From: Dehalococcoidia bacterium
Lineage (GTDB): Bacteria > Chloroflexota > Dehalococcoidia > UBA6926
DNA: 64,000 nt
Assembly (NCBI GenBank): GCA_034422835.1
Contig: DAOUJJ010000013.1
Location: forward strand, 12,618 to 76,617
Direction: 5' to 3'
A program made the translations under genes and the position numbers. The stretch's first letter is position 1, and the number at the start of each line of letters is the position of its first letter. Positions 1,431 to 49,010 of this stretch are shown piece by piece. The notes below the pieces were generated by a model. The model did no database searches and was not told where the DNA came from. It saw only the letters and a program-made list of their open reading frames with translations.

Positions 1431-4400
1431 ATGCAGATAGTTGAAGGCAACCTGGTCTACTCCGCGACGGATCTTGTCGCATTTCTTGAATGTGGACATC
1501 TTTCAAATCTGGAGCGGTCCGCAGCACTAGGTGCTCTCACCAAGCCTAACCAGATCGACCCCATACTCGATCGCATTGCCGAACGAGGAGAGCGCCACGA
1601 GAAACTCTTTTTGGAGTCGCTACACGCTGAGCCCGTCCAAATCTTAGAAGTTAGCTTGGATGAGACTCTCCCGAGTGGAAAGCGCCTGCTGAAAGGTTGT
1701 GACGACACCCTTGGTGCGATGCGTAGTGGTGTAGACACGATATATCAGGCTGTGCTCTTTGATGGCCGGCGTTTAGGTTATGCGGATTTCCTGAGGCGTG
1801 TTGAACGACCTAGCGACTTGGGACCATGGAGCTACGAAGTCTGGGATACGAAGCTCGCAAGGCACGCAAAGGCATCAGCCGTACTTCAGCTCTGCATGTA
1901 TTCCGAGATGCTAGGCGCGGTTCAAGGTGTGACGCCAGTTGAAATGCACTTGGCTCTCGGTGGGGCACAGCAGGAGAAGGTTTCCTTCCGGGTGGCCAAC
2001 TATGCCGCCTACTATAGGCTTGTGCGGAGAGATTTTGAGTCTAGCCTCGATCTGCCGCTAGCCAATCCATTGCAGACCACTCCTGAGCCAGTGGAGCACT
2101 GCGCTATGTGTCGGTGGAGTTCTCAATGTCAGGCTAAATGGCGTCAGGAAGACGACCTAACCCTCGTTGCAAATCTGTCATCTCGACAGCGCCGTCTACT
2201 TCGCGGTGCTGGAGTGAATACCCGCACGGGACTCGCAGAAGACCTGCCTCAGCGATTAGATGGTATGGGTGAAGAGGTACTAGGTAGGCTACATCTTCAG
2301 GCTAAGATCCAAGTTCGAGGTGAACGGGATGGTATGACCATATCGGAGCACATTGAACCACCGCGGGATCGCGATGGGGCATTGATCTCGAATCACGGAC
2401 TACTGATGCTCCCTGAGCCATCCACTGGTGACCTTTTCTTCGACATTGAGGGTGACCCATTCTTCAGTTCCAAAGATGTGGATGGGATCGATTACCTATT
2501 CGGAGTTATGGAGGTAATCGAGAAAGATTCATTTGACCATCCGGAATTCCACTCATTTTGGGCGATCGAAGATGAAACGGTAACCCAGCAAGGTGAGCGA
2601 AGGGCGTTTGAGACTCTTGTCGACTTCTTCATGGACCGTCTTGAGGCAGACCCAAAGCTGCACATCTATCATTACGCACCTTACGAACCGACCGCCATGA
2701 AGAGGCTCGCCGGTCGTTACGGAACTCGCGAGAACGAGATTGACCAGCTACTGCGCGGAGGAGTCTTCGTCGACCTGTATCGCGCCGTACGGCAAGGAAT
2801 TCGTGCCTCCGTTGAGAGTTACTCTCTCAAGCACTTAGAACCACTTTACAATTTCAGGCGAGAGATTGATCTCCGGGATGCTGGGACAAGCATTGTTGAG
2901 TTCGAAACGTGGCTTGAACTCGGTGATGGAGAACAGCGAACAGAACTACTTGCGGACATCGAGAGCTATAACCGTGATGACTGTCTTTCGATCGTCTACT
3001 TGAGAAAGTGGCTTGAAGGTCAGCGTATCGAATTGGCCAACGAATTGGGGCACGCCCTTCCTAGACCAAGCGTAATTCAACCAGAAGAGAGGGAGGATAG
3101 TGAAACTCAAAATGAAGTTAGTCGAGTAGTATCTGCACTGATTGATGACTTGCCTGAATCGACCGACTCCATGACGGATGTCCAAAGAGGGCGATGGTTG
3201 TTAGCTCAACTGCTCAATTGGCACCGACGTGAGGACAGATCTCTCTGGTGGAGGTACTTTTATGTTGTCAAGGAGCTGACTGATGCTGAACGTCGAGAGG
3301 AACCAGACTGTTTAGGCGAGTTAACCTTCGATAAATCTTGGTCAGACCCCGCGCCAAATTCCCGGTCAAACATTTATCGCTTCAGTTTTCAGCCGCAGGA
3401 ACATGACATCCGGATCGGGATCAGGCCACTTGACCCTGAGATTGAAAAAACTGTTGGTGAAGTTGTAAGCCTGGACGATGAGCATGGCACCATTGATATC
3501 AAACGAGCCAAGTCACAGCCTGCCCCAACACCAACTTCATTAGTTCCGTTCGAGTATGTCAATCCTAGACCTAAGCCAGAGAGTTTGCTCAGTATAGCCA
3601 ACTGGGTGCTAACAAACGACATGAGTGCATCAGGAAGATTCCAGGTCGCCCGCGATTTATTGGCCAGAAGGCCTCCTCGTTTTGCGAGGCATGTTGAAGG
3701 AGAGCGCCTGCGCAAAGACACCGAGGACGCTCAGGACGCAGCACGACGGCTAGTCAAGGAATTGAATAGGAGTTACCTCGCGATCCAAGGCCCACCGGGT
3801 TCTGGCAAGAGCACGGTGGGAGCAACAATGATCGTCGATCTCCTAGAAGATGGTCAGCGCATAGGCGTTACAGCCAATAGCCACAAGGTCATTGGCGAGT
3901 TGCTCACGAAGGTTGCTAAGGAAGCCAAATCCCGGTCTCTCGCCACAAGAATCGGACAACGCTCGACCGATGCTCCAACATTCAGTGGCGCTATTCATCT
4001 CAGAAACAATGATGATGCACGAAATGCACTTGCTAACGGTGAAGCAAATGTCGTTGGTGGAACTTCTTGGCTCTGGTCGAGACAAGATATGGCAGACTCC
4101 ATCGATATCCTATTCGTCGACGAAGCTGGGCAAATGTCGCTAGCCGATGTGCTTGCAGCATCTCCTAGCGCAAAGAACGTTGTATTGCTCGGCGATCCGC
4201 AGCAGCTCGATCAGCCTTTACAGGGAACTCACCCACCGGGAGCGGAGGGGTCAGCCCTAGCGCATGTGCTCGACGGGGCTCAGGTGATGCCCGACGACCT
4301 CGGCCTATTCCTAGATGGAACTTGGCGGCTTCACCCACAAATCACAGCCTATACGTCCGAAGTGTTTTACGAAGGTCGTCTACATTCTCACGATGGGCGC

Positions 4401-4925
4401 GAACTGCTTGAACTGAAGGGTAAACCTCCACTGAATGGAACCGGCTTAAGATTCATCCCGGTGACCCATACAGCGCAATCAAGCGAGTCCATTGAAGAGG
4501 TGTCGCAAATATCTCAATTGCTCCGTCAGTTGCTGGAATCAAATGCAGCGTACCGAGATGCGAATGCAGCGACTCATCGCCTTGATAGCGATGGCGTGCT
4601 ATTGATTACGCCATACAACGATCAGGTTCGGGCTCTAAGCAAGGAACTGCCCAATTTCCGAATCGGGACTGTCGACAAATTTCAAGGGCAAGAGGCCCCG
4701 ATCTCAATTTACTCCATGGCAACGAGTTCCATAGATGAGGCACCCCGAGGCATGGAATTCCTCTACAGCCTTAATCGGCTGAACGTTGCAACTAGCCGGG
4801 CACAGTGCCTAGCTGTCGTCGTAGCCAGTCCTGAACTCTTGAGGGTACGCTGCCGCACTCCTCGCCAAATGCGCCTGGCAAATGCTCTCGCAATGTTTGT
4901 AGAGATGGCGGACAAGCAAGACTAG
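1431..4925 (+). CDS. Dna2/Nhi-like fusion: Cas4/AddB-type Fe-S PD-(D/E)xK nuclease + RNase-H-like (YprB/TM0106-type) exonuclease + SF1B (AAA_11/AAA_12, Upf1-like) helicase
   Basis: N-terminus: C21 plus C-x2-C-x5-C (EHCAMCRWSSQC), D...EVWDTK...QLCMY nuclease motifs, DIEGDPFF. C-terminus: Walker A GPPGSGKST, DEAGQ, LLGDPQQL, KFQGQE, NVATSRA helicase motifs. A/T-richer codon usage than the flanks. RBS TAGGAG precedes the ATG. Confidence 0.8.
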   Translation: MQIVEGNLVYSATDLVAFLECGHLSNLERSAALGALTKPNQIDPILDRIAERGERHEKLFLESLHAEPVQILEVSLDETLPSGKRLLKGCDDTLGAMRSGVDTIYQAVLFDGRRLGYADFLRRVERPSDLGPWSYEVWDTKLARHAKASAVLQLCMYSEMLGAVQGVTPVEMHLALGGAQQEKVSFRVANYAAYYRLVRRDFESSLDLPLANPLQTTPEPVEHCAMCRWSSQCQAKWRQEDDLTLVANLSSRQRRLLRGAGVNTRTGLAEDLPQRLDGMGEEVLGRLHLQAKIQVRGERDGMTISEHIEPPRDRDGALISNHGLLMLPEPSTGDLFFDIEGDPFFSSKDVDGIDYLFGVMEVIEKDSFDHPEFHSFWAIEDETVTQQGERRAFETLVDFFMDRLEADPKLHIYHYAPYEPTAMKRLAGRYGTRENEIDQLLRGGVFVDLYRAVRQGIRASVESYSLKHLEPLYNFRREIDLRDAGTSIVEFETWLELGDGEQRTELLADIESYNRDDCLSIVYLRKWLEGQRIELANELGHALPRPSVIQPEEREDSETQNEVSRVVSALIDDLPESTDSMTDVQRGRWLLAQLLNWHRREDRSLWWRYFYVVKELTDAERREEPDCLGELTFDKSWSDPAPNSRSNIYRFSFQPQEHDIRIGIRPLDPEIEKTVGEVVSLDDEHGTIDIKRAKSQPAPTPTSLVPFEYVNPRPKPESLLSIANWVLTNDMSASGRFQVARDLLARRPPRFARHVEGERLRKDTEDAQDAARRLVKELNRSYLAIQGPPGSGKSTVGATMIVDLLEDGQRIGVTANSHKVIGELLTKVAKEAKSRSLATRIGQRSTDAPTFSGAIHLRNNDDARNALANGEANVVGGTSWLWSRQDMADSIDILFVDEAGQMSLADVLAASPSAKNVVLLGDPQQLDQPLQGTHPPGAEGSALAHVLDGAQVMPDDLGLFLDGTWRLHPQITAYTSEVFYEGRLHSHDGRELLELKGKPPLNGTGLRFIPVTHTAQSSESIEEVSQISQLLRQLLESNAAYRDANAATHRLDSDGVLLITPYNDQVRALSKELPNFRIGTVDKFQGQEAPISIYSMATSSIDEAPRGMEFLYSLNRLNVATSRAQCLAVVVASPELLRVRCRTPRQMRLANALAMFVEMADKQD

Positions 4926-5151
4926 TTGACGGCGTTAAGGGAAATGCAAACAAACAAATTCGAGCGGAGGGGAGCGGCCTAGCTCCTAGTAAGTTGCCGA
5001 GCACAGGCACCCTTACAAGATCGGCATTTGCCCGGATGCTCGCAAGTGTCCAACTGTTCACACTCATTTCTGCCTCTCACAACGCCACCTCAAACCGAAA
5101 CGTTCGCAGTATCATCCCGTTAGGCCCATATCCCACCGCTGCAAAACAACA

Positions 5152-5187
5152 AGACTGGGGAGTGGCGGTTCCGCCACTCCCCAGTCT
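5152..5187. terminator. Bidirectional rho-independent terminator hairpin between the convergent Nhi-like gene and proX
   Basis: Perfect inverted repeat AGACTGGGGAGTGGCGG-ttcc-GCCACTCCCCAGTCT. On the minus strand it is followed by TTGTTGTTTT. Confidence 0.6.
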
Positions 5188-5246
5188 TCACACCGTCTTT
5201 ACAGCCAACGTTCCGGTATCAAACCGGTAGGCGCTGTGAGATTCCT

Positions 5247-6287
5247 TTAGGGAATCCAGGCCCTCCAGACCGACTCATTGGCATCAACCCACTCCTGCGC
5301 GGCGGCGCGCACCGGGAGGTCGTTCTCAGTCAGGTTGAGCACAATCTCGTTCTGTTGTGCGTTGGTCATCCGGAAGTTGACGAGGAACTCGTACGCCTCC
5401 GGGAACTCATCTTGAAGGCCGGGCCAAATCAGCTTGGCAACGGGATCCGTTGGGTAGCCGCAGTCATACCTCTCGCCGTCCGGATAGCAGTCTGTGGTCC
5501 ATTCCGGCATCTCAATCTGGATGAGGTTGTACTTGGCGTGTGCCCAGTGGGGTTCCCAAAGGTACGTCATGACTGGGTCGCCTCGCTGGAATGCGGCGTC
5601 CAGCTCGGCAAGCGCCGCGCCCTCAGACCCGGCGAATACCACCTGGAAGTCGACGCCAAATGCTTCAAGACGCTCCTCGGGTCTCGTATCCCACGCCGGA
5701 GTGAACTCAAGGAGTCTCCCGCTCGTTCCCGTGTCACTCGTTGCAAAGACAGACTTGTACTGATTCATGTCGTTAACGGTTTGGAGGTCGGGGGCAACGG
5801 CCTCGATGCCACGCTCAGAGTCTCCGTTGATGACGTAGGACGGCACATACCAGCCACCTGTGCCACTAATGCCGACCGGCCCCATGCGGTCCACCGTGGC
5901 CTCGTCAGCGTCGACGTATTCGGTAAGAAGATCAGCGCTGTATGACGGCCAGTTGCAGCACACAAAGTGGAAGTCGCCATTTTCGAGCCCAAGGAAGAGG
6001 GGCGCCGAATCGGCGGGCGCGAACTTGGTCGCGACCGTATGGCCCATCTCTTGCTCCAACAGGATCTGCGCCACAGCTGTCACGACAAGCTGACCGTTCC
6101 AATCCTGGTCGACGAGATAGAGGGTCCCCATCTCTTCCATTTCATCCGTCTCTGCATCGTCGGCCTGTTCACATGCCAGACCTGCCGCGAGGGCGACGGT
6201 CAACAGCAGTGCCAACGGGATGGCAACCCAGGCCTTTCTCAGTCTCTTCATTATTTCTCCCCTGTCTGTTAGTGGCGCGACAGACAA
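5247..6287 (-). CDS. proX: Glycine betaine/proline ABC transporter substrate-binding lipoprotein
   Basis: Signal peptide with lipobox (LAAGLAC), OpuAC-type fold motifs. Last gene of a proV-proW-proX operon. Confidence 0.8.
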   Translation of the reverse strand: MSVAPLTDRGEIMKRLRKAWVAIPLALLLTVALAAGLACEQADDAETDEMEEMGTLYLVDQDWNGQLVVTAVAQILLEQEMGHTVATKFAPADSAPLFLGLENGDFHFVCCNWPSYSADLLTEYVDADEATVDRMGPVGISGTGGWYVPSYVINGDSERGIEAVAPDLQTVNDMNQYKSVFATSDTGTSGRLLEFTPAWDTRPEERLEAFGVDFQVVFAGSEGAALAELDAAFQRGDPVMTYLWEPHWAHAKYNLIQIEMPEWTTDCYPDGERYDCGYPTDPVAKLIWPGLQDEFPEAYEFLVNFRMTNAQQNEIVLNLTENDLPVRAAAQEWVDANESVWRAWIP

Positions 6288-6367
6288 CCATGGTCGGTTG
6301 CCTTGTTCCGGTTGGTCACATACACAATCCTCCTTACCGGGTTTGTGGGCTTTTATCCTGATTAGCC

Positions 6368-8347
6368 CTATCTCAATGCTCCGGCTGTCATCGCAGCCCG
6401 CTGCTTTCCTTGGGTCATTCGATCAAGAACCATCGCCATGAAGACAATGGTCATGCCTGCAATCAGACCTTCGCCCATCTCCAGCCGAATGGAGGTGATG
6501 AAGACTATTTGTCCCAGACCGCCGCCGCCTACCAATCCGGCGATGATCACCATTGCCAGCACCATGATGATGGTCTGGTTGACGCCCATCATGATTGTCG
6601 GCATGGCCAACGGTATCTTGACCTGGAGCATCGTCTGGAGCGCTGTTGATCCATGAGACATCGCTGTCTCGATTGCCTGGGCCGGCACCCCCTTGATTCC
6701 AAGACTGGTCATCCGAATCACCGGAGGAAGCGCATAGACCGATGTGGCGATGATGCCGACCAGCGGGCCAATGCCCCAGAGCATGATCACGGGTATCAGA
6801 TACACGAAGATCGGCATGGTCTGCATCGTGTCCATAATGGGGCGCAGGATCGACTCGAACGTCCTGCTCTGGGACGCGATGGCGCCAAGTATGACCCCCA
6901 CGACTACAGTGAACACTCCCGCCGTTAGCACCTGGCTCAGTGTCTCAACGGTCATGTCCCAAAGCCCGCCGATGCCCGCAAACACAAGCCCCAAGACGGC
7001 GAGCAGGGCCACACGCCATCCTGCGGCGAAGTAAGCGGCGACCGCCGCGATTACCATCAGTGCAGGCCATGGAAGCCAAAGCAAGAACGTATTAACCGGC
7101 GCGAAACCGATCTCGCGGAACAGGACGTCACGGCTCCAGCTGGTGGCAAAGTGAATGTGTACAGCCATCCAATCAACCACCATGTTGATCTGATCTGTGA
7201 GTGAGAAGGTGAGCTCTTCGGGGAAGTCTCTCAGTGGCGCAATGAACGCGCCAAGCAGGGCCAAAAGGCCCAGGATCGTGATCGTCAGTATGTTTTTCCC
7301 TGGCATTCTTCGGAGTGTCTGGGTATTTGATCCGTCTGTAGAGGAATCGCCGGAGGAATTCGGAGTGGCGCTTTGGGGACCGGACCGCGCAAGGGCGTAA
7401 CTGAACCTGTCCAGGATGATGGCCAGGAGAACGATTGCTATGCCGCTCTGCAGCCCATCCCCGGCGTCCACCTCTCTCAATGACAGCCAGACATCCCGGC
7501 CGAGTCCCTCCACGCCGACCAGCGCAGTAATGATCACCATGGCGACCGCCATCATGATGGTTTGGTTGACGCCCATCATGATTGAGCCCTTGGCCAATGG
7601 AATCTGAACGTGAAATAACGTCTGGGCGGGTGTTGATCCATGAGATTGGGCTGTTTCGACAACTGCCTGTGGAACATGGCGGATGCCCAGGTTGGTCAGT
7701 CTGATGACGGGCGCAATGGAGTACACCACAGTCAGGAAAACGCCCTGCGCGCCGGCCACGCCAAACAGGACCAGCGCCGGGATGAGGTACACGAAGGCGG
7801 GCAGAACCTGCATCGTGTCGAGAAGTGGGCGGACAAGTGATTCGAATCGATTGCTGAAGGCGGCGAGTATACCAATGGGCACCCCAATCCCGACGGCGAT
7901 GAGCACGGAAACCCCCACCATGCTCAGCGTGACCATTGCGGAGTCCCAGAACCCAATCAGACCTGTGAACAACGCGGCCAGACCGCTGAACACTCCCAAC
8001 CATTTGCCGCCAAGCCTGAACCCCAGAAGTGAAACCCCCGCCACGACAAGCGGCCATGGGAGCCAGAGTAAAACGGCGTCGAGTCCGGCAATGCCCGCGT
8101 CAAGCACGCTGGAGATAGGATTGAAGAACCAGGCGAAACTGTCGCCGACCCAATCAAAAGCCGTGTCGATGGCCCCTTGGACGGGTAGTTCCCAGCTCTC
8201 AGGCCAGTTACCAAAGTCGGTATTTGCGTTGTTCGTTGCCAGCGTGTAGGCGAGGAGATAGGTGGCCGCACCGAGTGCGGCCCACAAGACCCACTTGAAT
8301 CGGGACTCGCGGATATAGCGAAGCTGCAGAGTCTCCGAGCGGATCAC
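6368..8347 (-). CDS. proW: Glycine betaine/proline ABC transporter permease, tandem-duplicated (two ProW-type TM domains fused)
   Basis: Two repeats of the BPD permease signature (…SHGST..QT…IPLA…[11 protein letters not shown]…); 659 aa. Start overlaps the proV stop. Confidence 0.8.
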
Positions 8348-9612
8348 ACTGCACCTTCGCCGCTTACCAGGGCGGCCATAGCCTCAGTGCGCGTTATGGT
8401 GCCGATGCATCGGCCGTCGTCCAGGACTGCGATGGGGGCGTCATTGTCAAGGACGAGGGAAATGAGCCGTTCAAGACGTGTGTCCGCTTCCGTAACGGGG
8501 CAGGAGTCTTGCATCGTGGATGCCACGCTGGTGTGCCCTGCCATGCCATTTCTTGGCACATCATCCATGTGCACGGTTCCAATGAAGCGGCCGTCATTGT
8601 CAACCACCACTGCGCATTCGCATTCTTGTGAGGTCATCGTGTGAATCAGGTCGGCCAACGGCTCATCCGCAGTCACGTAAACCGAGGGTTCGGTCATTAC
8701 GGAACGGGCGGTGAGGACCTTTGAGCGCGGCACGTCTCGCGTGAAGTCCCGCACGTAGTCGTCAATGGGGTTGGAGACCAGTTCTTCTGGTGTGCCCACC
8801 TGGACGAACTCTCCATCCTTCATGATGGCCACCCGGTCTCCCACTTTGAGGGCCTCCATGAAATCGTGGGTGATGAAGACCATCGTCTTCTTGACCAGTC
8901 GCTGGAGATCGATCAACTGATCCTGCATATCCCGGCGGATGAGGGGATCGAGAGCGCTGAACGGCTCGTCGAAAAGAAGGATCTCAGGGTCTACGGCCAG
9001 GGCGCGCGCCAGCCCAATGCGTTGCTGCATCCCCCCGCTTAGCTCATGCGGGTACCGCTGCTCCCATCCTGACAAGCCCACCAGGTCAATCACTTCCTCT
9101 GCGCGATTGAGCTGCGTGGCCTTATCGATGCCCTGGACTTGCAGACCATAGACAACGTTTTCAAGGACTCGCTTGTGAGGGAAGTTGCCGAAGTGCTGGA
9201 AGACCATGCCCATCTTGTGACGCCGCACGTCCCGCAGCTGCTGCTTGCTCATCGCAAGCAAGTCCTCACCGTCGACGTGGACATGTCCGCGGGTCGGTTC
9301 GATGAGTCTGCTCAAACAGCGGACAAGCGTGGACTTGCCGCTGCCGGAAAGGCCCATGATGACGAATGTCTCGCCTTCATGGACATCGAAAGAGACATCT
9401 CTAACGGCCACCACAGCCCCGGTCTCTGCCAGGACATCTTCCCTGGACTGGCCGGGCTCAATGGACTCGGCAAGCTCCTCGGCTCCGTCTCCAAAGACCT
9501 TCCAGAGGTTTTCGCAGACAAGCCTCGTGTCGACCTCTAGGTCGAGTTCGTCGGCTGCTTGAGCAAGATCGGCAGCATTGTCAGCTGCGGACTGAATATC
9601 GATATGGCACAC
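8344..9612 (-). CDS. proV: Glycine betaine/proline ABC transporter ATP-binding protein with C-terminal CBS domains
   Basis: Walker [18 protein letters not shown] signature, Walker [14 protein letters not shown]-terminal CBS-like repeats. Confidence 0.85.
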
Positions 9613-11120: not shown

Positions 11121-11184
11121 CCGCTCATCCTGAGCCTGTCGAAAGGCCGCTCACCTGTCATTCCGGCGAAGGCCGGAATCCACC
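11121..11184. repeat. Palindromic repeat cluster (family 1 CTGAGCCTGTCGAAAGGC + family 2 GTCATTCCGGCGAAGGCCGGAATCC)
   Basis: Matches six other loci in the window. Hairpin-forming. Confidence 0.8.
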
Positions 11185-17208: not shown

Positions 17209-17356
17209 CCGCTCACCCTGAGCTTGTCGAAGGGCTCCGCCCGTCATTCCCACGAAAGCGGGAATCCAGAACTCCCTTCCCCGGTGGGGGGGGAGAGTCA
17301 GGGTGAGGGGTAAGCGCCCCACCCATGTCATTCCGAGCGCAGCCGAGGAATCTAAA
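17209..17356. repeat. Palindromic repeat cluster (family 1, family 2 GTCATTCCCACGAAAGCGGGAATCCAGAAC, family 4 GTCATTCCGAGCGCAGCCGAGGAATCTAAA)
   Basis: Starts directly after the vapC stop. A GGGGGG…CCCC palindrome lies between the units. Confidence 0.8.
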
Positions 17357-26862: not shown

Positions 26863-28650
26863 GTGGACACCACAGACACCCCCAACACCGACGAGCCGCA
26901 GCGCCCCGTCACCCGGCGCGGCATCGCCCGCCCCCCTCGCACCCGACGCACAACGGCATCCGCTGCAACCGAAACCCCTCCTGAGGAAACTACTGCCGAG
27001 GAGGCCGTGGCCGACAACGGCGCAGCCCTCGTCGAAACCCCCACCGAAAACGGCGCATCCGCCCCCACTGAGGAATCCCCTTATTCCGGCGAAAGCCGGA
27101 ATCCATCGGGTACCCCCTCCATCACCGCCGGCCTACCACCCGCCACCAACACCACCACTGAAATCATCGATGACATCGAAGACGAAGCGCCGGTCGGCCC
27201 ACCCCGCCGCGCCCCTCGCCAACGCCCCGCCAACGGTGCAGGGCGGCAGCGGCGCGAACGCCCGGACCGCGGCGACCGCCCACAGCGCCCCCGCCCGCCC
27301 GCCAACGCTGCCGCTGACGGCGCCGATTCTGACTCCCAACCGCGTGAACCCCGCGTCGTTGATCTGCCGGAGCCCCTTCACCACGTCACCATCCCACAGC
27401 TTGAGGCCCTTGATCGTGACGAGGCCGCCCGCCTTGCGGAGTTCCTCAACATGCCCCCCGGCGCAGCCCTCCGCCGTGACGAGATGGTCCATCGCGCCAT
27501 CCAGCAGCTCGGTGAGCGCGGCGGCACAATCTCCGCCAGCGGCATCCTTGAGATCACCAACGACGGCTACGGTTTCATCCGCCACCGCACACTCCGCCAC
27601 AACATCAACGATGTGTACGTCGCCCAGTCGCAGATCCGCCGCTTCAGCCTCCGCACCGGCGATTGGGTCACCGGCCTCGTCCGCTCTCCCAAGAGCGGCG
27701 AGAAATACTACGGCCTCCTCCGCGTTGACACCGTCACCGGCCAGGAACCCGAGATCTCCCGCCGCCGCCCCGTCTTTGACCAGCTCACCGCCCTCTTCCC
27801 CGATCGACTCTACGATCTTGAGACGAATCAGAAGGCCGTCGCCGCCCGCCTCCTCAATCTCATCGCCCCCATCGGCTTTGGGCAGCGCGCGTTGATCGTC
27901 TCCCCCCCCAAGGCCGGCAAGACCATCCTCCTCCACCAGATCGCGGACGCCATCGCCTCCCAATACCCCTCAACACACATCATGGCCGCTCTCATCGGCG
28001 AGCGGCCCGAGGAGGTCACCGATTGGGAGCGCACCGTTAAAGGAGCGGAGGTCATGGCATCCACCTTTGACGAGCCCGTTGAAGAGCACACCCGCGTCGC
28101 GGAGCTCGTTCTCGCGCGCGCCAAGCGGCTCGTCGAGGCCGGGCAGGATGTCGTCATCCTTCTCGATTCCATCACCCGCCTCGCCCGCGCCTACAACATC
28201 GCCGCCCCATCCAGCGGACGCACCCTCTCCGGCGGCATGGACCCCGTCGCGCTGTATCCCCCCAAGCACTTCTTCGGCGCAGCCCGCAACACCGAGGAAT
28301 CCGGCACCCTCACCATCGTCGCCACTTGCCTGGTTGACACCGGATCGCGGCTTGATGATGTCATCTACGAAGAGTTCAAGGGCACCGGCAACATGGAAGT
28401 CCACCTGGACCGCAAACTCGCCGAGCGCCGCATCTACCCCGCCATAGACGTCCTCAAGTCCGGCACCCGCCGTGACGAGCGGCTCTACGACAACAAGACC
28501 TACCGCGGCATCGTCACGCTCAGGCGCATGATGGCCATGCTCTCCAACTCCAACCTGGACGCATCCGACGCCACAGAGCGCATCCTCGATCGCATCAGCA
28601 AAACCAAGACCAACGCCGAATTCATAGCCACCCTCTCCCGCGAAATCTAA
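26863..28650 (+). CDS. rho: Transcription termination factor Rho with ~200-aa Arg/Pro/Thr-rich N-terminal extension
   Basis: Rho RNA-binding and ATPase motifs (GYGFIR…, PPKAGKT…). GTG start 6 nt after RBS AAAGGAG. The track ORF 26173.. begins inside pyrG in another frame. Confidence 0.85.
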   Translation: MDTTDTPNTDEPQRPVTRRGIARPPRTRRTTASAATETPPEETTAEEAVADNGAALVETPTENGASAPTEESPYSGESRNPSGTPSITAGLPPATNTTTEIIDDIEDEAPVGPPRRAPRQRPANGAGRQRRERPDRGDRPQRPRPPANAAADGADSDSQPREPRVVDLPEPLHHVTIPQLEALDRDEAARLAEFLNMPPGAALRRDEMVHRAIQQLGERGGTISASGILEITNDGYGFIRHRTLRHNINDVYVAQSQIRRFSLRTGDWVTGLVRSPKSGEKYYGLLRVDTVTGQEPEISRRRPVFDQLTALFPDRLYDLETNQKAVAARLLNLIAPIGFGQRALIVSPPKAGKTILLHQIADAIASQYPSTHIMAALIGERPEEVTDWERTVKGAEVMASTFDEPVEEHTRVAELVLARAKRLVEAGQDVVILLDSITRLARAYNIAAPSSGRTLSGGMDPVALYPPKHFFGAARNTEESGTLTIVATCLVDTGSRLDDVIYEEFKGTGNMEVHLDRKLAERRIYPAIDVLKSGTRRDERLYDNKTYRGIVTLRRMMAMLSNSNLDASDATERILDRISKTKTNAEFIATLSREI

Positions 28651-44895: not shown

Positions 44896-46248
44896 ATGAC
44901 TGCCACAGAGAACAATCGCCGAGATATGAGCGCCTCACCCGTCCCCGGCACGGGCAAGCTGCCCCTTGAGGGTCTCCGCATCTTGGACATCACCGTGGTG
45001 TGGGCCGGGCCGTACGGCACCATGCACCTGGCCGACTGGGGTGCGGAGGTCATCCGCATCGAGTCCATCAAGCACTTTGCCACCAGCACGCGCGGGCAGA
45101 TGGCGCGCCCGCCCATTGAATTCGTGCGTCTCCGCAACACCGGCATGGGCTATGTCGATGACGACCCCGGCGAGCGCCCCTGGAACCGCCAAGCCATCTT
45201 CAACACGCATTCCCGCAACAAGCTCTCCGTCACCATGGATCTCGCCTCTCCCGAAGGTCAGGAAGCCCTTGAGAGACTCGTCGCGCAGGCCGACGGTTTC
45301 CTGGAGAACAACGTCGCCATCTCCATGGAGCGGTTCGGCATCACGTGGGAGCGCCTCTCCGCCATCAACCCGCGCCTCATCATGGTGCGGATGCCCGCAT
45401 TCGGCATCGAGGGCCCGTACAAGAACTACCGCACGTGGGGCAACCACATGGAGGCGCTGGCCGGCCATCCGTACCTGCGCGCCTACCCGGACGAGGACCC
45501 TGCCCGCGGCCCCAGCGGCGTCCCCAGCGACGCGGCGGGCGGCGTCGGCGGCGCGCTCGCGTTCATCATGGGTCTGCGCCATCGCAACAAGACCGGCAAG
45601 GGCATCCTCATCGAGGCGCCCACCGCCGAGAACTTTGTCCCGTTCCTTGGCGATTTCGTCATGGACTACTCCATGAACGGCCGCGTCTATACCCAGCTCG
45701 GCAACGGCCATCTTTTCCTCGCCCCGCACAACGTCTACCGCTGCGCCGGTGAGGAACGCTGGCTCACAATCGCCTGCCGCTCGGACGCGGAGTTCCGCAC
45801 GCTCTGCCAGATCATGGGAGAGCCGAATCTTGCCGACGATCCCAGATTCGCTGACAGCCTCAGCCGCTATCAGAATCGCCGCGCGCTCGATGAGGTGATC
45901 TCACGTTGGACGGTTGAGCAGGACGCGAAGGAGACCATGCACCGACTACAGGCCGCCGGCGTGCCCGCCGGCATGGTGATGGACGAGGCCGATGTCCACG
46001 CGGACCCGCAGGTCGCGGAGCGCAACTTCTTCCAGGAGGTCACGCATCCGGAGGCGGGAACCCACAAGAACCCGACGACGGGCTTCAAGCTCCAGAACAC
46101 GCCCTATGAGATCCGCCGCCACGCCGTGCTGCTTGGCCAGGACAACGAATACGTCTACAAGAACGTCATGGGCTACTCAGACGAGGAGTACCAGAAGTTC
46201 ATCGACATGGGCCATGTCGGCATGGACTACGACCCGGACGTGCAGTAG
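44896..46248 (+). CDS. CoA-transferase family III (CaiB/BaiF)
   Basis: LRILDITVVWAGPYGTMHLADWGAEVIRIE…. Confidence 0.85.
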   Translation: MTATENNRRDMSASPVPGTGKLPLEGLRILDITVVWAGPYGTMHLADWGAEVIRIESIKHFATSTRGQMARPPIEFVRLRNTGMGYVDDDPGERPWNRQAIFNTHSRNKLSVTMDLASPEGQEALERLVAQADGFLENNVAISMERFGITWERLSAINPRLIMVRMPAFGIEGPYKNYRTWGNHMEALAGHPYLRAYPDEDPARGPSGVPSDAAGGVGGALAFIMGLRHRNKTGKGILIEAPTAENFVPFLGDFVMDYSMNGRVYTQLGNGHLFLAPHNVYRCAGEERWLTIACRSDAEFRTLCQIMGEPNLADDPRFADSLSRYQNRRALDEVISRWTVEQDAKETMHRLQAAGVPAGMVMDEADVHADPQVAERNFFQEVTHPEAGTHKNPTTGFKLQNTPYEIRRHAVLLGQDNEYVYKNVMGYSDEEYQKFIDMGHVGMDYDPDVQ

Positions 46249-46263
46249 CGAGGACGGCCCGCT

Positions 46264-46498
46264 GTCATTCTGAGCGGAGCGCAGCGGAGTCGAAGAATCT
46301 AAAGCCTCAAATGCGCCGCCAAACCCCCTCCCCACCGTGAGGGAGGGCAAGGTGGGGGGCACATCCGCTCATCCTGAGCCTGTCGAATGACGTGAGCCCA
46401 TCCGTCATTCCCGCGAAAGCGGGAATCCAGAGCCGTCGATAGGGCGGACTCCTCATTAATTCCGAGTGAAGCGCAACAGGATTGAGGAATCTAAGCAC
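46264..46498. repeat. Largest palindromic repeat cluster (family 4 variant, CCCCTCCCCACCGTGAGGGAGGG palindrome, family 1, family 2 GTCATTCCCGCGAAAGCGGGAATCCAGAG, family 4/5 TTCCGAGTGAAGCGCAACAGGATTGAGGAATCTAAG)
   Basis: Five hairpin units within 235 bp, immediately after the CaiB stop. Confidence 0.8.
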
Positions 46499-46559
46499 TT
46501 AGTCTAACAGCCCACTTTCTTTATGGACGTGTTGCAACCTGCCCCTACCATCTTGCTTG

Positions 46560-46846: not shown

Positions 46847-47632
46847 TTAACCCCACCAATCAAAATCGCGCCGGGCGAACTCTTGAGATATGAGTAGATC
46901 TGGTTGCTCATAGAGCAGCGCGTCGATTTCTTCCCTCAGACTCCCGTGCATATATTCCCACATTACTGGAGATAACCGTCTCTCCAGACGCATGTGGAGT
47001 AGAAGTTCCACTTCATCGTTATTGGAATAGAAGCCGGCAAGGTCGATCGAACGCAGGCTATAGTTGTGGCGTTCTGCATAATCCAAGAGAGATTCGTTTG
47101 GCCTAATCCACTCTCCTACTTCAATCATCCGGTTAAAGATCCTCCAGAGGTACTCACCGTAATTCACATAACCGCCGACCGATTCCCCGTTGTATTCAAG
47201 AAAGTCTCGGAATGGCATTGTGTCATATTGCCCGGCGGCAGAAAGGCGGTAAGCAAAAAAGGCATCCCAGTACCCATCCTTGATGAGCGCCTGATACGGA
47301 CCAGTTTGGCTCGCCCACTGTTCACTAGTGGCGAGGTAGCCGTTCCACACTCGTTCGAGTTCATTTGGATCAAGGAAAGTTGGCCCGGGGATAGGGGTTG
47401 GAGTGTTTTGAGGCAATTGCGTGGGTAGGGGAGTTTGCGCTGCTATTGGAGTTGGTGACACGGGAAGTGGCGTAAGCGTTGGTGTTGCGGTTGGAGTTGC
47501 TGAAGGAACCGGCGTATAGACCGGTACGGTTGTGGCAGGCTCAGCAGATTGCGAGCCCCGTGAGCAACCAACAACCAGCGCCCCGGTACACAGGATCAGG
47601 ATGACCACTAGGGAGATAGCTAAAACACGCAC
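46847..47632 (-). CDS. Hypothetical lipoprotein with Pro/Thr-rich linker
   Basis: Signal peptide plus lipobox LVVGCS, PT-rich linker, ~170-aa C-terminal domain of unknown function. Confidence 0.5.
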   Translation of the reverse strand: MRVLAISLVVILILCTGALVVGCSRGSQSAEPATTVPVYTPVPSATPTATPTLTPLPVSPTPIAAQTPLPTQLPQNTPTPIPGPTFLDPNELERVWNGYLATSEQWASQTGPYQALIKDGYWDAFFAYRLSAAGQYDTMPFRDFLEYNGESVGGYVNYGEYLWRIFNRMIEVGEWIRPNESLLDYAERHNYSLRSIDLAGFYSNNDEVELLLHMRLERRLSPVMWEYMHGSLREEIDALLYEQPDLLISQEFARRDFDWWG

Positions 47633-47671
47633 GAGGGCATTCTAACAGCCCCTTTTCATCTTGAGGGGATG

Positions 47672-47713
47672 CCCCCCCTCACAGCTTGCTCGCCAGTTCC
47701 TCCATGTGGCCGG
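47672..47713. repeat. Direct repeat copy 1: duplicated phoU 3' end flanking the hicBA-like cassette
   Basis: CCCCCCCTCACAGCTTGCTCGCCAGTTCCTCCATGTGGCCGG is near-identical (1 indel, 1 mismatch) to 48325-48364. Confidence 0.75.
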
Positions 47714-47716
47714 CTC

Positions 47717-47989
47717 TTACTTGATGATCCCGCGCCCCCGCAGAATCTCCATATACCCGTCCCTATCCAGAGGGCAATTGACAGCGTCACGCAACTGTTG
47801 CTCAGTAAGCTTTAACTGCTGGCGGATTCGTTGATGGTGCGGCAAGTCACCACTGTCTTTGCGGGAGCGTTTGGAGCGTACGACTACTCGGCCACCGACG
47901 TAGAGTCGAGCCTTAACATGATCTCCGCCCCGAACCTCAAAGCCGAATTTCCGGACGACCTGGTCAAACTCACGCGCCGTCAGTGGCAT
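47717..47989 (-). CDS. HicA-like (YcfA/dsRBD-fold) toxin with C-terminal extension
   Basis: …VRKFGFEVRGGDHVKARLYVGGRVVVRSKRSRKDSGDLP…IRQQLKL resembles the HicA consensus. Overlaps the upstream HicB-like gene. Confidence 0.5.
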   Translation of the reverse strand: MPLTAREFDQVVRKFGFEVRGGDHVKARLYVGGRVVVRSKRSRKDSGDLPHHQRIRQQLKLTEQQLRDAVNCPLDRDGYMEILRGRGIIK

Positions 47990-48299
47990 CGACCTGACGG
48001 AGCTTTCCAATGAGAATATCGTAGATTGCTTGAAGCGCGGGCCCCAACCTGTCCCGGTCCTCGTGAAGATCACTAAAGAGTTCCACGATGGACTGCTGAA
48101 GGTCGCTTAGCGCCTCCTCCAGCGTGTCGCCTACTCCGTACTCCTCTAGCTCGGGCGCATCAGCTATGTATGTACCGTCCACGATTTCCCACGTCACCTT
48201 GATAGGCTCGACCACTCGTAGGCTGGCATCACCCAAGTCGCGAAGTTCAAGTGGTTGAGGAATCGTAGACGCAGGCGCGCTGAATCGCTGAGTGCTCAT
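47970..48299 (-). CDS. HicB-like antitoxin (UPF0150-type domain)
   Basis: …VTWEIVDGTYIADAPELEEYGVGDTLEEALSDLQQSIVE… typical of the HicB N-domain. Confidence 0.5.
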   Translation of the reverse strand: MSTQRFSAPASTIPQPLELRDLGDASLRVVEPIKVTWEIVDGTYIADAPELEEYGVGDTLEEALSDLQQSIVELFSDLHEDRDRLGPALQAIYDILIGKLRQVDATDGA

Positions 48300-48324
48300 A
48301 GCAGTACCAGTATAACCGCCCGCG

Positions 48325-48364
48325 CCCCCCTACAGCTTGCTGGCCAGTTCCTCCATGTGGCCGG
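48325..48364. repeat. Direct repeat copy 2 (the native phoU 3' end)
   Basis: CCCCCCTACAGCTTGCTGGCCAGTTCCTCCATGTGGCCGG; encodes the phoU C-terminus …HMEELASKL*. Confidence 0.75.
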
Positions 48365-49010
48365 TGACGAGGAAGACGACGCGCTCTGCGATGTTCGTCG
48401 TCCGGTCCGCGATGCGCTCAAAGTTATGTGTCGCCCACACCAGGTACGTCGCCTCCTGCACCAGCGACGGATTCTCAATCATGGTCTGAATCAGGGCGTG
48501 GTAGGACGAGTCCTGCATCGCGTCGACCTCATCGTCCTCCTCGCAGATCCTGCGGGCGGCGTCGGCATCGCGCTCTACCAACGCCGTCAATGCCCGCCGG
48601 AGCATGTCCCGGCACTTCTCCGCCATCTGCGGCAGCGTGTCCAGGGGCCGCACCGTGCTGTCCGCCCCGATCATCTCCGCGATGCGCGCATTGCCCTCCG
48701 CATGGTCCGCCATCCGCTCAAGATCGACAATGATGTTCAGCACGGCCACGACGACGCGCAGGTCGCCGGCCATCGGCTGCTGCGTTGCGATGACGCGGAT
48801 GGCCTTTTCCTCAGTGTCAAAGCGCGCCTTATCGATGCGCTCATCCTCGGCAACCACCTGCTGCGCAAGATTCGAGTCCCGATTCAGCAGCGCCTCCAGA
48901 GAGCGTTCGATGGACTTGTCCACCATGGAGCCCATGGCGAGAACGTCATCCAGGAGCTCTCGCAGCAGCCGATCAAAGTCGGTGCGGGTCGCGTGCGGTT
49001 CCATTGCCAT
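48330..49010 (-). CDS. phoU: Phosphate transport system regulator PhoU
   Basis: Two PhoU repeats (…DKARFDTEE…, …VVAVLNIIVDLERMADHA…). Confidence 0.9.
   Translation of the reverse strand: MAMEPHATRTDFDRLLRELLDDVLAMGSMVDKSIERSLEALLNRDSNLAQQVVAEDERIDKARFDTEEKAIRVIATQQPMAGDLRVVVAVLNIIVDLERMADHAEGNARIAEMIGADSTVRPLDTLPQMAEKCRDMLRRALTALVERDADAARRICEEDDEVDAMQDSSYHALIQTMIENPSLVQEATYLVWATHNFERIADRTTNIAERVVFLVTGHMEELASKL

Follow-up and report, generated by a model that had tools for sequence, protein, structure and literature searches.

In a 64,000-nucleotide (nt) stretch of the genome of an uncultured Dehalococcoidia bacterium (GenBank assembly GCA_034422835.1, contig DAOUJJ010000013.1, positions 12,618 to 76,617; this whole stretch is hereafter the window), a 651-bp unit encoding a HicB-like and a HicA-like protein, i.e. 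a candidate toxin-antitoxin cassette, is found at the 3' end of phoU. Comparison with related loci supports the conclusion that this unit is a real insertion at the phoU terminus, in which the gene end was regenerated and the original terminus was displaced to the far side of the cassette. We consider it probable that foreign DNA carrying a phoU end was captured here by homology, at a hotspot for defence genes, and not via a dedicated mobility enzyme. The features on which this analysis is centred, in the order in which phoU is read, are the following.

48330-49010, minus strand: phoU, intact, encoding 226 amino acids (aa) (Pfam PhoU, E=2.5e-42), the target gene whose 3' end is duplicated.

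48322-48364, minus strand: proximal repeat copy, comprising the last 11 phoU codons (with GCC for Ala), the TAG stop and a G-run.

48300-48321, minus strand: left spacer with a -10-like TTATACT (48309-48315) 9 nt upstream of the hicB-like ATG, the presumed cassette promoter.

47970-48299, minus strand: gene for the HicB-like putative antitoxin, 109 aa, with weak Foldseek matches only and no recognisable DNA-binding domain.

47717-47989, minus strand: gene for the HicA-like putative toxin, 90 aa, with a predicted HicA fold and a family-specific two-helix C-terminal extension.

47714-47716, minus strand: 3-nt junction (GAG) that joins the hicA-like stop to the distal phoU-end copy, read as an illegitimate joint inherited with the cassette.

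47671-47713, minus strand: distal repeat copy (GCG for Ala, TGA, G-run), non-coding, reading GHMEELASKL-stop with synonymous and stop differences only relative to the proximal copy.

47633-47681, minus strand: original post-phoU sequence, with an 8-bp hairpin (UGAGGGGG/CCCCCUCA) lacking a U-tract and a TAGAAT -10-like element before a lipoprotein gene.

A repeat search of the window identified a direct repeat of 43 nt (47671-47713 and 48322-48364), with 91% ungapped identity and a spacing of 651 nt. Its 33-nt core (47681-47713 versus 48332-48364) contains one mismatch and occurs exactly twice in the window, against zero expected from 100 shuffles. The preliminary description of this DNA, made from the sequence alone, had proposed looking for other copies; elsewhere in the window there are none, either of the phoU-end repeat or of the two cassette proteins. 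On the minus strand both copies end in the translation G-H-M-E-E-L-A-S-K-L-stop, which identifies the distal copy as a displaced, non-coding second phoU terminus. The proximal copy uses GCC for Ala and TAG as stop; in the distal copy these are GCG and TGA, and the G-run that follows is longer by one G. These differences explain the "one indel and one mismatch" of the preliminary description, which had correctly placed the repeat next to the HicA-like stop (TAA, 47717-47719), the actual gap being 3 nt. Its account of the intervening DNA was equally accurate. Between the copies there are only two open reading frames (ORFs), of 109 aa (47970-48299) and 90 aa (47717-47989), both on the minus strand and overlapping by 20 nt, and the inter-repeat segment is A/T-richer than phoU, with a GC content of ~0.56 versus 0.62-0.68. 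The same arrangement is present in two assemblies of one sample, a 192.8-kb ENA scaffold (L001; related loci are referred to by such handles) and a Logan contig (L002), and analogous structures are found in complete chromosomes of metagenome-assembled genomes (MAGs). It is therefore not an assembly artefact.

To compare the phoU terminus across the clade, we used a PhoU scan of species-representative genomes that yielded 35 loci, the close ones being uncultured Dehalococcoidia MAGs, several of them from sponge metagenomes. The window PhoU is 78-98% identical to PhoU proteins of Dehalococcoidia MAGs. Mapping the window proteins onto these and other looked-up loci gave 25 distinct phoU loci in the clade. 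The "empty" phoU 3' ends for which the preliminary description had proposed a search in relatives were found in seven related species (L009, L010, L015, L017, L019, L021 and L024), in each of which phoU faces a convergent CoA-transferase gene across 44-80 nt. In 11 of the 25 loci, a hicB(A) cassette directly follows phoU (the window, L003, L007, L012, L013, L022, L023, L035, L042, L088 and L089).

Two comparisons show which of the copies is the old one and that the site was filled by insertion. In local alignment, the flank beyond the distal copy, GGGGGGGCATCCCCTCAAGATGAAAAGGGG, matches what follows the phoU stop in L024, an empty-site locus (score 18.5, reached by none of 200 shuffles), and the flank beyond the proximal copy does not; the distal copy and its flank are therefore the old phoU terminus. 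The spacer that follows the proximal copy, GGGGGGCGCGGG, resembles the post-phoU sequence of two other empty-site relatives, L019 and L010. An independent pair of filled and empty sites is provided by L023 and L018. In L018 phoU is followed by the end of a GmrSD gene, and in L023 by the cassette, a phoU-end copy and then the same GmrSD end. Together with the empty sites and the L024 flank, this pair bears out the proposal, made in the preliminary description, of an insertion with target duplication that regenerated the phoU end. Exact-protein look-ups with PhoU and with a 74-aa ORF of the window, made for a same-species empty allele, returned only the same arrangement and one contig with a different cassette.

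The gap that received the cassette is itself a variable hotspot, rich in defence-type genes. On the phoU side it is bordered by the final gene of a pstS-pstC-pstA-pstB-pstB-phoU cluster. Two further features of the window belong to it.

44896-46248, plus strand: CoA-transferase gene (family III, CoA_transf_3), convergent with phoU, the conserved right border of the hotspot.

46847-47632, minus strand: gene for a predicted lipoprotein of 261 aa, low in GC, with a signal peptide and lipobox read from the sequence; hotspot cargo outside the duplication.

Six of the 25 phoU loci contain other cargo in the gap, and in L090 a cassette is found at the CoA-transferase end, as it is in L043, whose phoU lies outside the fetched stretch. 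The gap cargo and the genes beyond the cassettes include a GmrSD type IV restriction enzyme, an SNF2 helicase, an NB-ARC STAND NTPase, an AAA_15 protein with DUF3226, a DNA methylase, a DEAD/MZB helicase and large Trypsin-SBP lipoproteins. Defence-type cargo was seen downstream of phoU (at about 4700-8600 in each) in L007, L013, L014, L016, L018, L022, L023 and L005, and a homologue of the window lipoprotein directly follows phoU in L014. The cassette family also occupies two other chromosomal sites in the clade, after hsp20 (L004) and in the interval between an enoyl-CoA hydratase gene and recR (L006 and L091). In L088 (2958-3639) phoU is split into ORFs of 178 and 50 aa; the contig naming suggests a long-read assembly, and the split is probably a frameshift error rather than a pseudogene.

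The duplication of the phoU end is not a single occurrence. We scanned the flanks of ~36 cassette loci for repeats and added a direct search for second phoU ends, which revealed duplications of 41 nt in the window, 38 nt in L007, 64 nt in L023 and 57 nt in L012/L005, two loci of the same genome. Overall, these have two different left boundaries and three types of junction. In the first type (window, L007 and L042) the copy begins 3-6 nt past the hicA stop, at CCGGCC. The offset seen in the window recurs in L007 (TAA GTG CCGGCC), in the decayed copy of L042 and in L003, where a dispersed palindromic repeat has cut the joint down to a 5-nt stump. In L023 the copy begins 14 nt past the hicA stop and ~15 nt further into phoU, and the repeat extends beyond the stop. 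In L012/L005 a 3-kb insert is flanked by the 57-nt repeat (L005 4879-4946 and 7911-7981); in it, hicB is truncated, a DEAD/MZB helicase of 760 aa is encoded, and the 3' end of a diverged CoA-transferase gene is present as a 58-codon fragment with an intact reading frame, ~25 nt upstream of the distal copy. This structure looks like a captured, circularised piece of the hotspot of another genome. The phoU end has thus been duplicated via at least three different junctions (window/L007/L042, L023 and L012).

The first junction type is informative about inheritance. It is common to the window, L007, L042 and L003, yet the hicA genes of these loci are 63-75% identical and have different downstream neighbours, which are the lipoprotein gene in the window, an SNF2 helicase gene in L007 and another ORF in L042. 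One junction has therefore been inherited with the cassette into different backgrounds, and at least two others arose separately. The distal copy of L042 matches that of the window at only 27 of 41 positions and reads IHMEAVARMHL. Since this copy decays when left alone, the well-preserved copies must be either young or refreshed by recombination. Away from the phoU site, no flanking repeats were found at ~30 scorable cassettes, with the exception of L072.

L072 is an unrelated metagenome contig of lower GC, in which a 28-41-nt intergenic direct repeat, GGGGAAGAAGAGAGTTTAAGAGGGGGC (2492-2533 and 3343-3383), flanks a distant cassette of the family and, in its upstream copy, ends inside a terminator hairpin. 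Judged by its sequence, L072 may provide another example of insertion with long target duplication. Near the cassette there are also a PemK/MazF-like ORF and a canonical-looking HicB/UPF0150-like ORF (1228-1587 and 3572-3826), suggesting an island rich in toxin-antitoxin genes.

Allele comparisons show that cassettes have been exchanged horizontally between phoU lineages. At the nucleotide level, phoU of the window is 98% identical to that of L003 and 95% identical to that of L007, whereas among the same three loci the hicB genes are only about 57-62% and the hicA genes 63-75% identical. It is this divergence of the cassettes beside near-identical phoU genes that reveals the exchange. With 71% identity, a hicB copy found at the hsp20 site in another genome is more similar to that of the window than the L003 and L007 copies are. 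L003 and L007 share a spacer/promoter region that is identical at 54 of 55 positions, with different cassette coding sequences, and the window cassette is 86-95% identical to that of L042, in which the phoU end belongs to a different allele class.

The paired copies themselves point in the same direction. In the four intact loci they differ at seven codons (9 nt), and every difference is either synonymous or stop-to-stop, including CTG to TTA and TAG to TGA. If every change had hit a neutral copy, the probability of this pattern would be at most about 1e-4, and under a conservative model in which half of the changes fall in the constrained copy it is about 0.01-0.04. In addition, the distal copy of L005 is identical to the phoU end of L089. 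Duplication in place followed by drift thus fits less well, both because all differences are synonymous and because distal copies equal known alleles. The comparison suggests that the paired copies are two functional phoU alleles from different genomes that were brought together.

A hotspot with variable cargo, cassettes that were swapped and at least three junctions, none of which figured in the preliminary description, favour homologous recombination over a system of attachment (att) sites and integrase, and we infer this route, with a dependence on RecA, for the capture of the cassette. The DNA on which the cassette arrived would have come from a related genome and included a copy of the phoU terminus of that donor, and host homologous recombination between the carried copy and the resident phoU end would have integrated it. 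This could have been a Campbell-type single crossover of a circularised donor fragment, or a double crossover in which phoU provided the long left arm and the short phoU-end copy the right arm. The gene fragment beside the distal copy in L012 is a structure that integration of a circularised fragment predicts. The resident terminus, with its downstream hairpin and the lipoprotein promoter, would have been pushed to the far side, and phoU would have been completed by the incoming copy, so that the 3' part of the proximal copy would have come in with the cassette and the 3' half of the distal copy would have been renewed from the recipient at integration. Since the phoU-end copy travels joined to the hicA stop, it would serve as a portable homology arm, with which the cassette could enter any relative whose phoU end is conserved. 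Recombination from repeat to repeat would permit clean loss of the cassette, and a dedicated recombinase would be unneeded. The two sequences that such a loss would leave are given below.

Junction across a repeat-excised circle: hicA stop-GAG-CCGGCC...CTGTAG-GGGGGGCGCGGGCGG-TTATACT.

Empty-site form of the window locus: phoU...CTGTGA-GGGGGGGCATCCCCTCAAG.

Several observations weigh against capture by homology. A near-identity of 33-57 nt is close to the minimum for RecA-type recombination, which would make each event rare. The cassettes at the phoU site in L035, L088, L089, L013 and L022 are free of repeats, so a cassette can reside there without one. Neither a circular form nor an excision junction was seen, nor was an empty allele from the same population. 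The three junctions cluster within ~15 nt of phoU (33 to ~48 nt before the stop), which is expected from a sequence-specific enzyme and not from random breaking and joining, although the clustering may also reflect the selective survival of short, stable repeats. A recombinase could, moreover, act in trans from outside the 64-kb window of this genome.

A bolder proposal, which we put forward as tentative and on balance doubtful, is that the phoU-end copy is a selected, functional homology arm that turns the toxin-antitoxin pair into a cassette that is mobile in a site-specific manner without a recombinase. Excised as a circle via its two repeats, or moving as linear DNA, the cassette would re-insert at the conserved phoU termini of related genomes through host homologous recombination only, its arm being renewed at each transfer.

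Two other explanations each appear unlikely to us, and each accommodates part of the evidence. The first holds that the phoU end is the att site of an integrase encoded elsewhere, either on a larger element since deleted or in trans, and that the cassette is an integrase-less attL/attR remnant, similar to a cis-mobilizable element (CIME). Direct repeats that cover the 3' end of a gene and regenerate it are the classic signature of an integrase, which would also account for three independent junctions starting within the same 15-nt stretch of phoU and for a repeat that is well conserved in three loci despite 25-40% divergence of the cassette genes. Yet neither the insert nor the genes called at L001, L005, L043 and L088-L090 include an integrase, and none was found in eight related loci among the scanned ORFs of 150 aa or more that lie beyond phoU. 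The downstream scan, performed with Pfam, covered 10 of 17 listed ORFs of at least 150 aa, from eight loci of a list that spans ten relatives, and it revealed no transposase either, in line with the statement in the preliminary description that neither is visible nearby. A degenerate phoU-end pattern, used to look for the attP of a phage or satellite, had no match in 2.9 million viral contigs, only one of which encodes a member of the cassette family. Furthermore, the length and left boundary of the repeat vary between events (41, 57 and 64 nt), the repeat has neither dyad symmetry nor an arm-type structure, and the CoA-transferase fragment by the distal copy of L012 points to a captured chromosomal fragment and not to the defined end of an element. 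Of the two modes of mobility that had been suggested for the cassette, "integrase-dependent" thus gained no positive support from the scanned ORFs or the viral contigs, and "self-mobilising" was not supported, as flanking repeats are absent from ~30 of the ~36 scorable loci of the cassette family at other sites and in other organisms and the cassette has no recombinase-like gene.

The second explanation, to which we assign a similarly low probability, is that the distal copy is an accident with no later role, produced by one-sided homology-facilitated illegitimate recombination or by a duplication made in place during replication or repair. It sits well with the presence at the phoU site of cassettes both with and without repeats, with junctions that are illegitimate joints of no obvious common motif, and with the decay of the distal copy in L042; long target duplications around restriction-modification genes, as far as they are described in the literature, likewise have no known dedicated mechanism. 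What it handles less well is the first junction type, since the same succession of hicA stop, 3 nt and CCGGCC in cassettes that are 63-75% identical and precede different genes implies that cassette and phoU end moved as a block after the joint had formed. The all-synonymous differences between the copies also argue against duplication in place followed by drift (P about 0.01-0.04). That the repeat is an independently acquired terminator or regulatory element, or else an assembly artefact, has next to no probability, for although a G-run and a hairpin follow both stop codons, the 33-nt core is in-frame phoU coding sequence and not a hairpin, neither copy has a terminator-like site or folds better than shuffled sequence (z of -0.26 and +2.1), and the arrangement recurs in the two same-sample assemblies and, in analogous form, in complete MAG chromosomes. 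The repeat was accordingly rejected as a terminator or regulatory repeat, and the view that it is not a shared terminator was upheld.

Other classes of element were also considered and rejected. A transposon, insertion sequence or miniature inverted-repeat transposable element does not fit, as there are no terminal inverted repeats at the cassette ends and the duplication is 41 nt long rather than 2-15 bp. For an XerCD/dif insertion (of the kind known as an integrative mobile element exploiting Xer) or an insertion at the replication terminus, the window shows no switch in GC skew and no dif-like dyad. An integron cassette is excluded by the mere 3 nt between the stop and the phoU-end copy, the folding z of -0.26 and the lack of an integrase nearby.

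Capture by homology at a variable gap has precedents among known systems. In the minimal mobile elements (MMEs) of Neisseria, a gap between conserved genes holds strain-variable cassettes that are probably exchanged by recombination in the flanks, without mobility genes. The phoU/CoA-transferase gap resembles them, with these two genes as flanks and hicBA, GmrSD, SNF2, NB-ARC, AAA_15+DUF3226 or lipoproteins as variable cargo; among the loci compared, 7 have nothing in the gap, 11 have hicB(A) there and 6 have other cargo. In contrast to the present case, a duplicated end of a flanking gene is not a defining trait of MMEs, and the hosts here are uncultured Dehalococcoidia. Integrative elements and CIMEs are found at the 3' ends of protein genes, for example ICESt1 and ICESt3 in fda of Streptococcus thermophilus. 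As in these, direct repeats of a gene 3' end flank the insert and the element-borne copy regenerates the gene end, but no integrase, excisionase or integrase-bearing relative was found in the examined loci, and the repeat boundaries differ from one event to the next. Naturally transformable bacteria likewise capture foreign DNA beside a homologous anchor by homology-facilitated illegitimate recombination, the second joint being illegitimate. This process usually deletes rather than duplicates recipient DNA, and it leaves the reuse of one junction in different backgrounds unexplained.

The closest parallel comes from restriction-modification gene complexes, whose insertion with long target duplication was reportedly described by Nobusato et al. 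in 2000. Judged by the features used by Furuta, Abe & Kobayashi (2010), the repeat in the window is longer than 30 bp (41-43 nt), the site is empty in relatives, and the insert is smaller than 20 kb (651 bp) and carries no mobility genes. For the uniqueness of the repeat in the genome, a further such feature, the analysis covered the 64-kb window, in which there are just the two copies. Bacteria in which restriction-modification genes have been described with this kind of insertion include Helicobacter and Haemophilus; 46-bp repeats that overlap gene 3' ends are among the examples, and the repeats often span start or stop sites (PMC2853133). For these cases, as presented in the sections of that paper dealing with them, no mechanism is known and a virus-like cycle via the repeats was proposed (PMC2853133). 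The cases as set out there are like ours in that a small module without a mobility gene is flanked by a direct duplication of more than 30 bp, which is single-copy at the empty site (PMC2853133). Relative to the same descriptions, our case differs in that the cargo is a toxin-antitoxin pair, one target was hit repeatedly through several junctions, and one junction was inherited across highly diverged cassettes, which suggests that the duplicated segment was reused as a homology arm. A limited literature search found no report of toxin-antitoxin genes inserted with long target duplication.

The two cassette genes form a conserved pair. A HicA-like gene was found in 45 loci, and in 40 of them the HicB-like gene immediately precedes it. 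The "hicBA-like" identity proposed in the preliminary description holds in part, as models of both proteins have HicA- or HicB-like folds and sequence scores remain below Pfam thresholds. Against Pfam HicA_toxin (PF07927), the 90-aa protein scores 17.5 bits (E=0.0046), under the cutoff of 27, sub-threshold matches being seen in only 7 of 30 family members, and it has no match in NCBIfam, PADLOC or PDB sequences. Its AlphaFold2 model, built with 30 homologues, has a mean confidence (pLDDT) of 84 and the dsRBD-like alpha-beta-beta-beta-alpha topology of HicA followed by two C-terminal helices. The best Foldseek match is 1whz, a HicA-family protein of Thermus (probability 1.00, TM score 0.69, 29% identity). 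His24 (in GGDH) of the window protein occupies the position of the catalytic His, which is retained only in the Dehalococcoidia subclade and is Leu in most of the wider family. The C-terminal two-helix tail is conserved and includes an invariant Cys.

The 109-aa protein matches no profile in Pfam, NCBIfam, PADLOC or PDB. Its AlphaFold2 model (pLDDT 68) has a beta-beta-beta-alpha-alpha topology, with weak Foldseek matches to HicB N-terminal domains and antitoxins (3k6q, 2yzt and 6g1c; probability 0.93-0.97, E 0.3-0.7), and no DNA-binding domain of the ribbon-helix-helix or helix-turn-helix type was detected in it. The link to HicA and HicB thus came, for both proteins, from structure prediction only, and the "HicBA-like" label appears fair at the level of the predicted folds. 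Like a HicAB type II toxin-antitoxin system, the pair consists of two small overlapping genes, one for a candidate toxin of the HicA fold and the other for a partner weakly similar to the HicB N-terminal domain, and it presumably has toxin-antitoxin activity. The canonical hicAB order places the A gene first, and HicB antitoxins have an N-terminal partial RNase-H-like domain followed by a DNA-binding domain. Here, in contrast, B precedes A, no DNA-binding domain is recognisable in the HicB-like protein, the HicA-like protein has a two-helix tail and the Pfam score is sub-threshold. The locus defines a HicA-fold two-gene family that has no annotation.

Most cassettes that were read upstream, at three chromosomal sites, have a TATACT motif (mostly TTATACT or CTATACT) at a constant distance from the start codon; in L023 the equivalent position reads TTACTAT. 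A consensus sigma-70 scan detected no full promoter in the left spacer, and the TTATACT element there may function as one, to judge from its sequence. At three loci representing two chromosomal sites (L004 5001-6247, L088 3691-5133 and L089 3643-4880), a homologue of the window lipoprotein starts 1-8 nt past the hicA-like stop. hicB, hicA and the lipoprotein gene may accordingly be a recurring three-gene unit; in the window a phoU-end copy and a separate promoter stand between hicA and the lipoprotein gene. In a HicB-like homologue of 143 aa (P0005), the C-terminal extension matches the translated region around the lipoprotein start (window 47553-47645, E=1e-4), suggesting that a deletion in that contig joined hicB to sequence beyond the cassette.

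The scattered distribution of toxin-antitoxin and restriction-modification modules among genomes gives them the look of mobile DNA, yet most of them lack a mobility gene, and how they spread is a long-standing gap. At a single gene end, sponge-associated Dehalococcoidia offer a natural series of empty and occupied sites, three independent junctions, one copy in decay and, in different hosts, cassettes that are nearly identical, which suggests a simple and testable route, namely the use of a captured terminus of a conserved gene as a homology arm. The series shows that the phoU/CoA-transferase gap of the clade is a hotspot for defence genes, and it extends the pattern of insertion with long target duplication from restriction-modification to toxin-antitoxin genes, which is not a new principle. 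If the proposal of a functional homology arm were true, it would be a general answer to the question of how small addiction and defence modules spread without mobility genes.

Two further repeats were noted in and around the gap. A second direct repeat (GAAAAGGGGCTGTTAGA at 47641-47657 and GAAAGTGGGCTGTTAGA at 46503-46519), identical at 15 of 17 positions and containing a -10-like motif (TAGAAT/TAGACT), brackets a low-GC module (0.46-0.49) formed by the lipoprotein gene (261 aa) and the 74-aa ORF. This repeat may have arisen by duplication of a promoter, or it may be the scar of a further insertion. A 25-nt palindromic element, TGGATTCCCGCTTTCGCGGGAATGA, occurs four times in the window (46405-46429, 11158-11182, 17244-17268 and 27081-27105), against zero expected by chance. 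It is also present in the phoU/CoA-transferase gap of the empty-site loci L010, L019 and L024, truncates the distal phoU-end copy of L003, and looks like a mobile or structural repeat of the clade, similar to repetitive extragenic palindromic (REP) elements.

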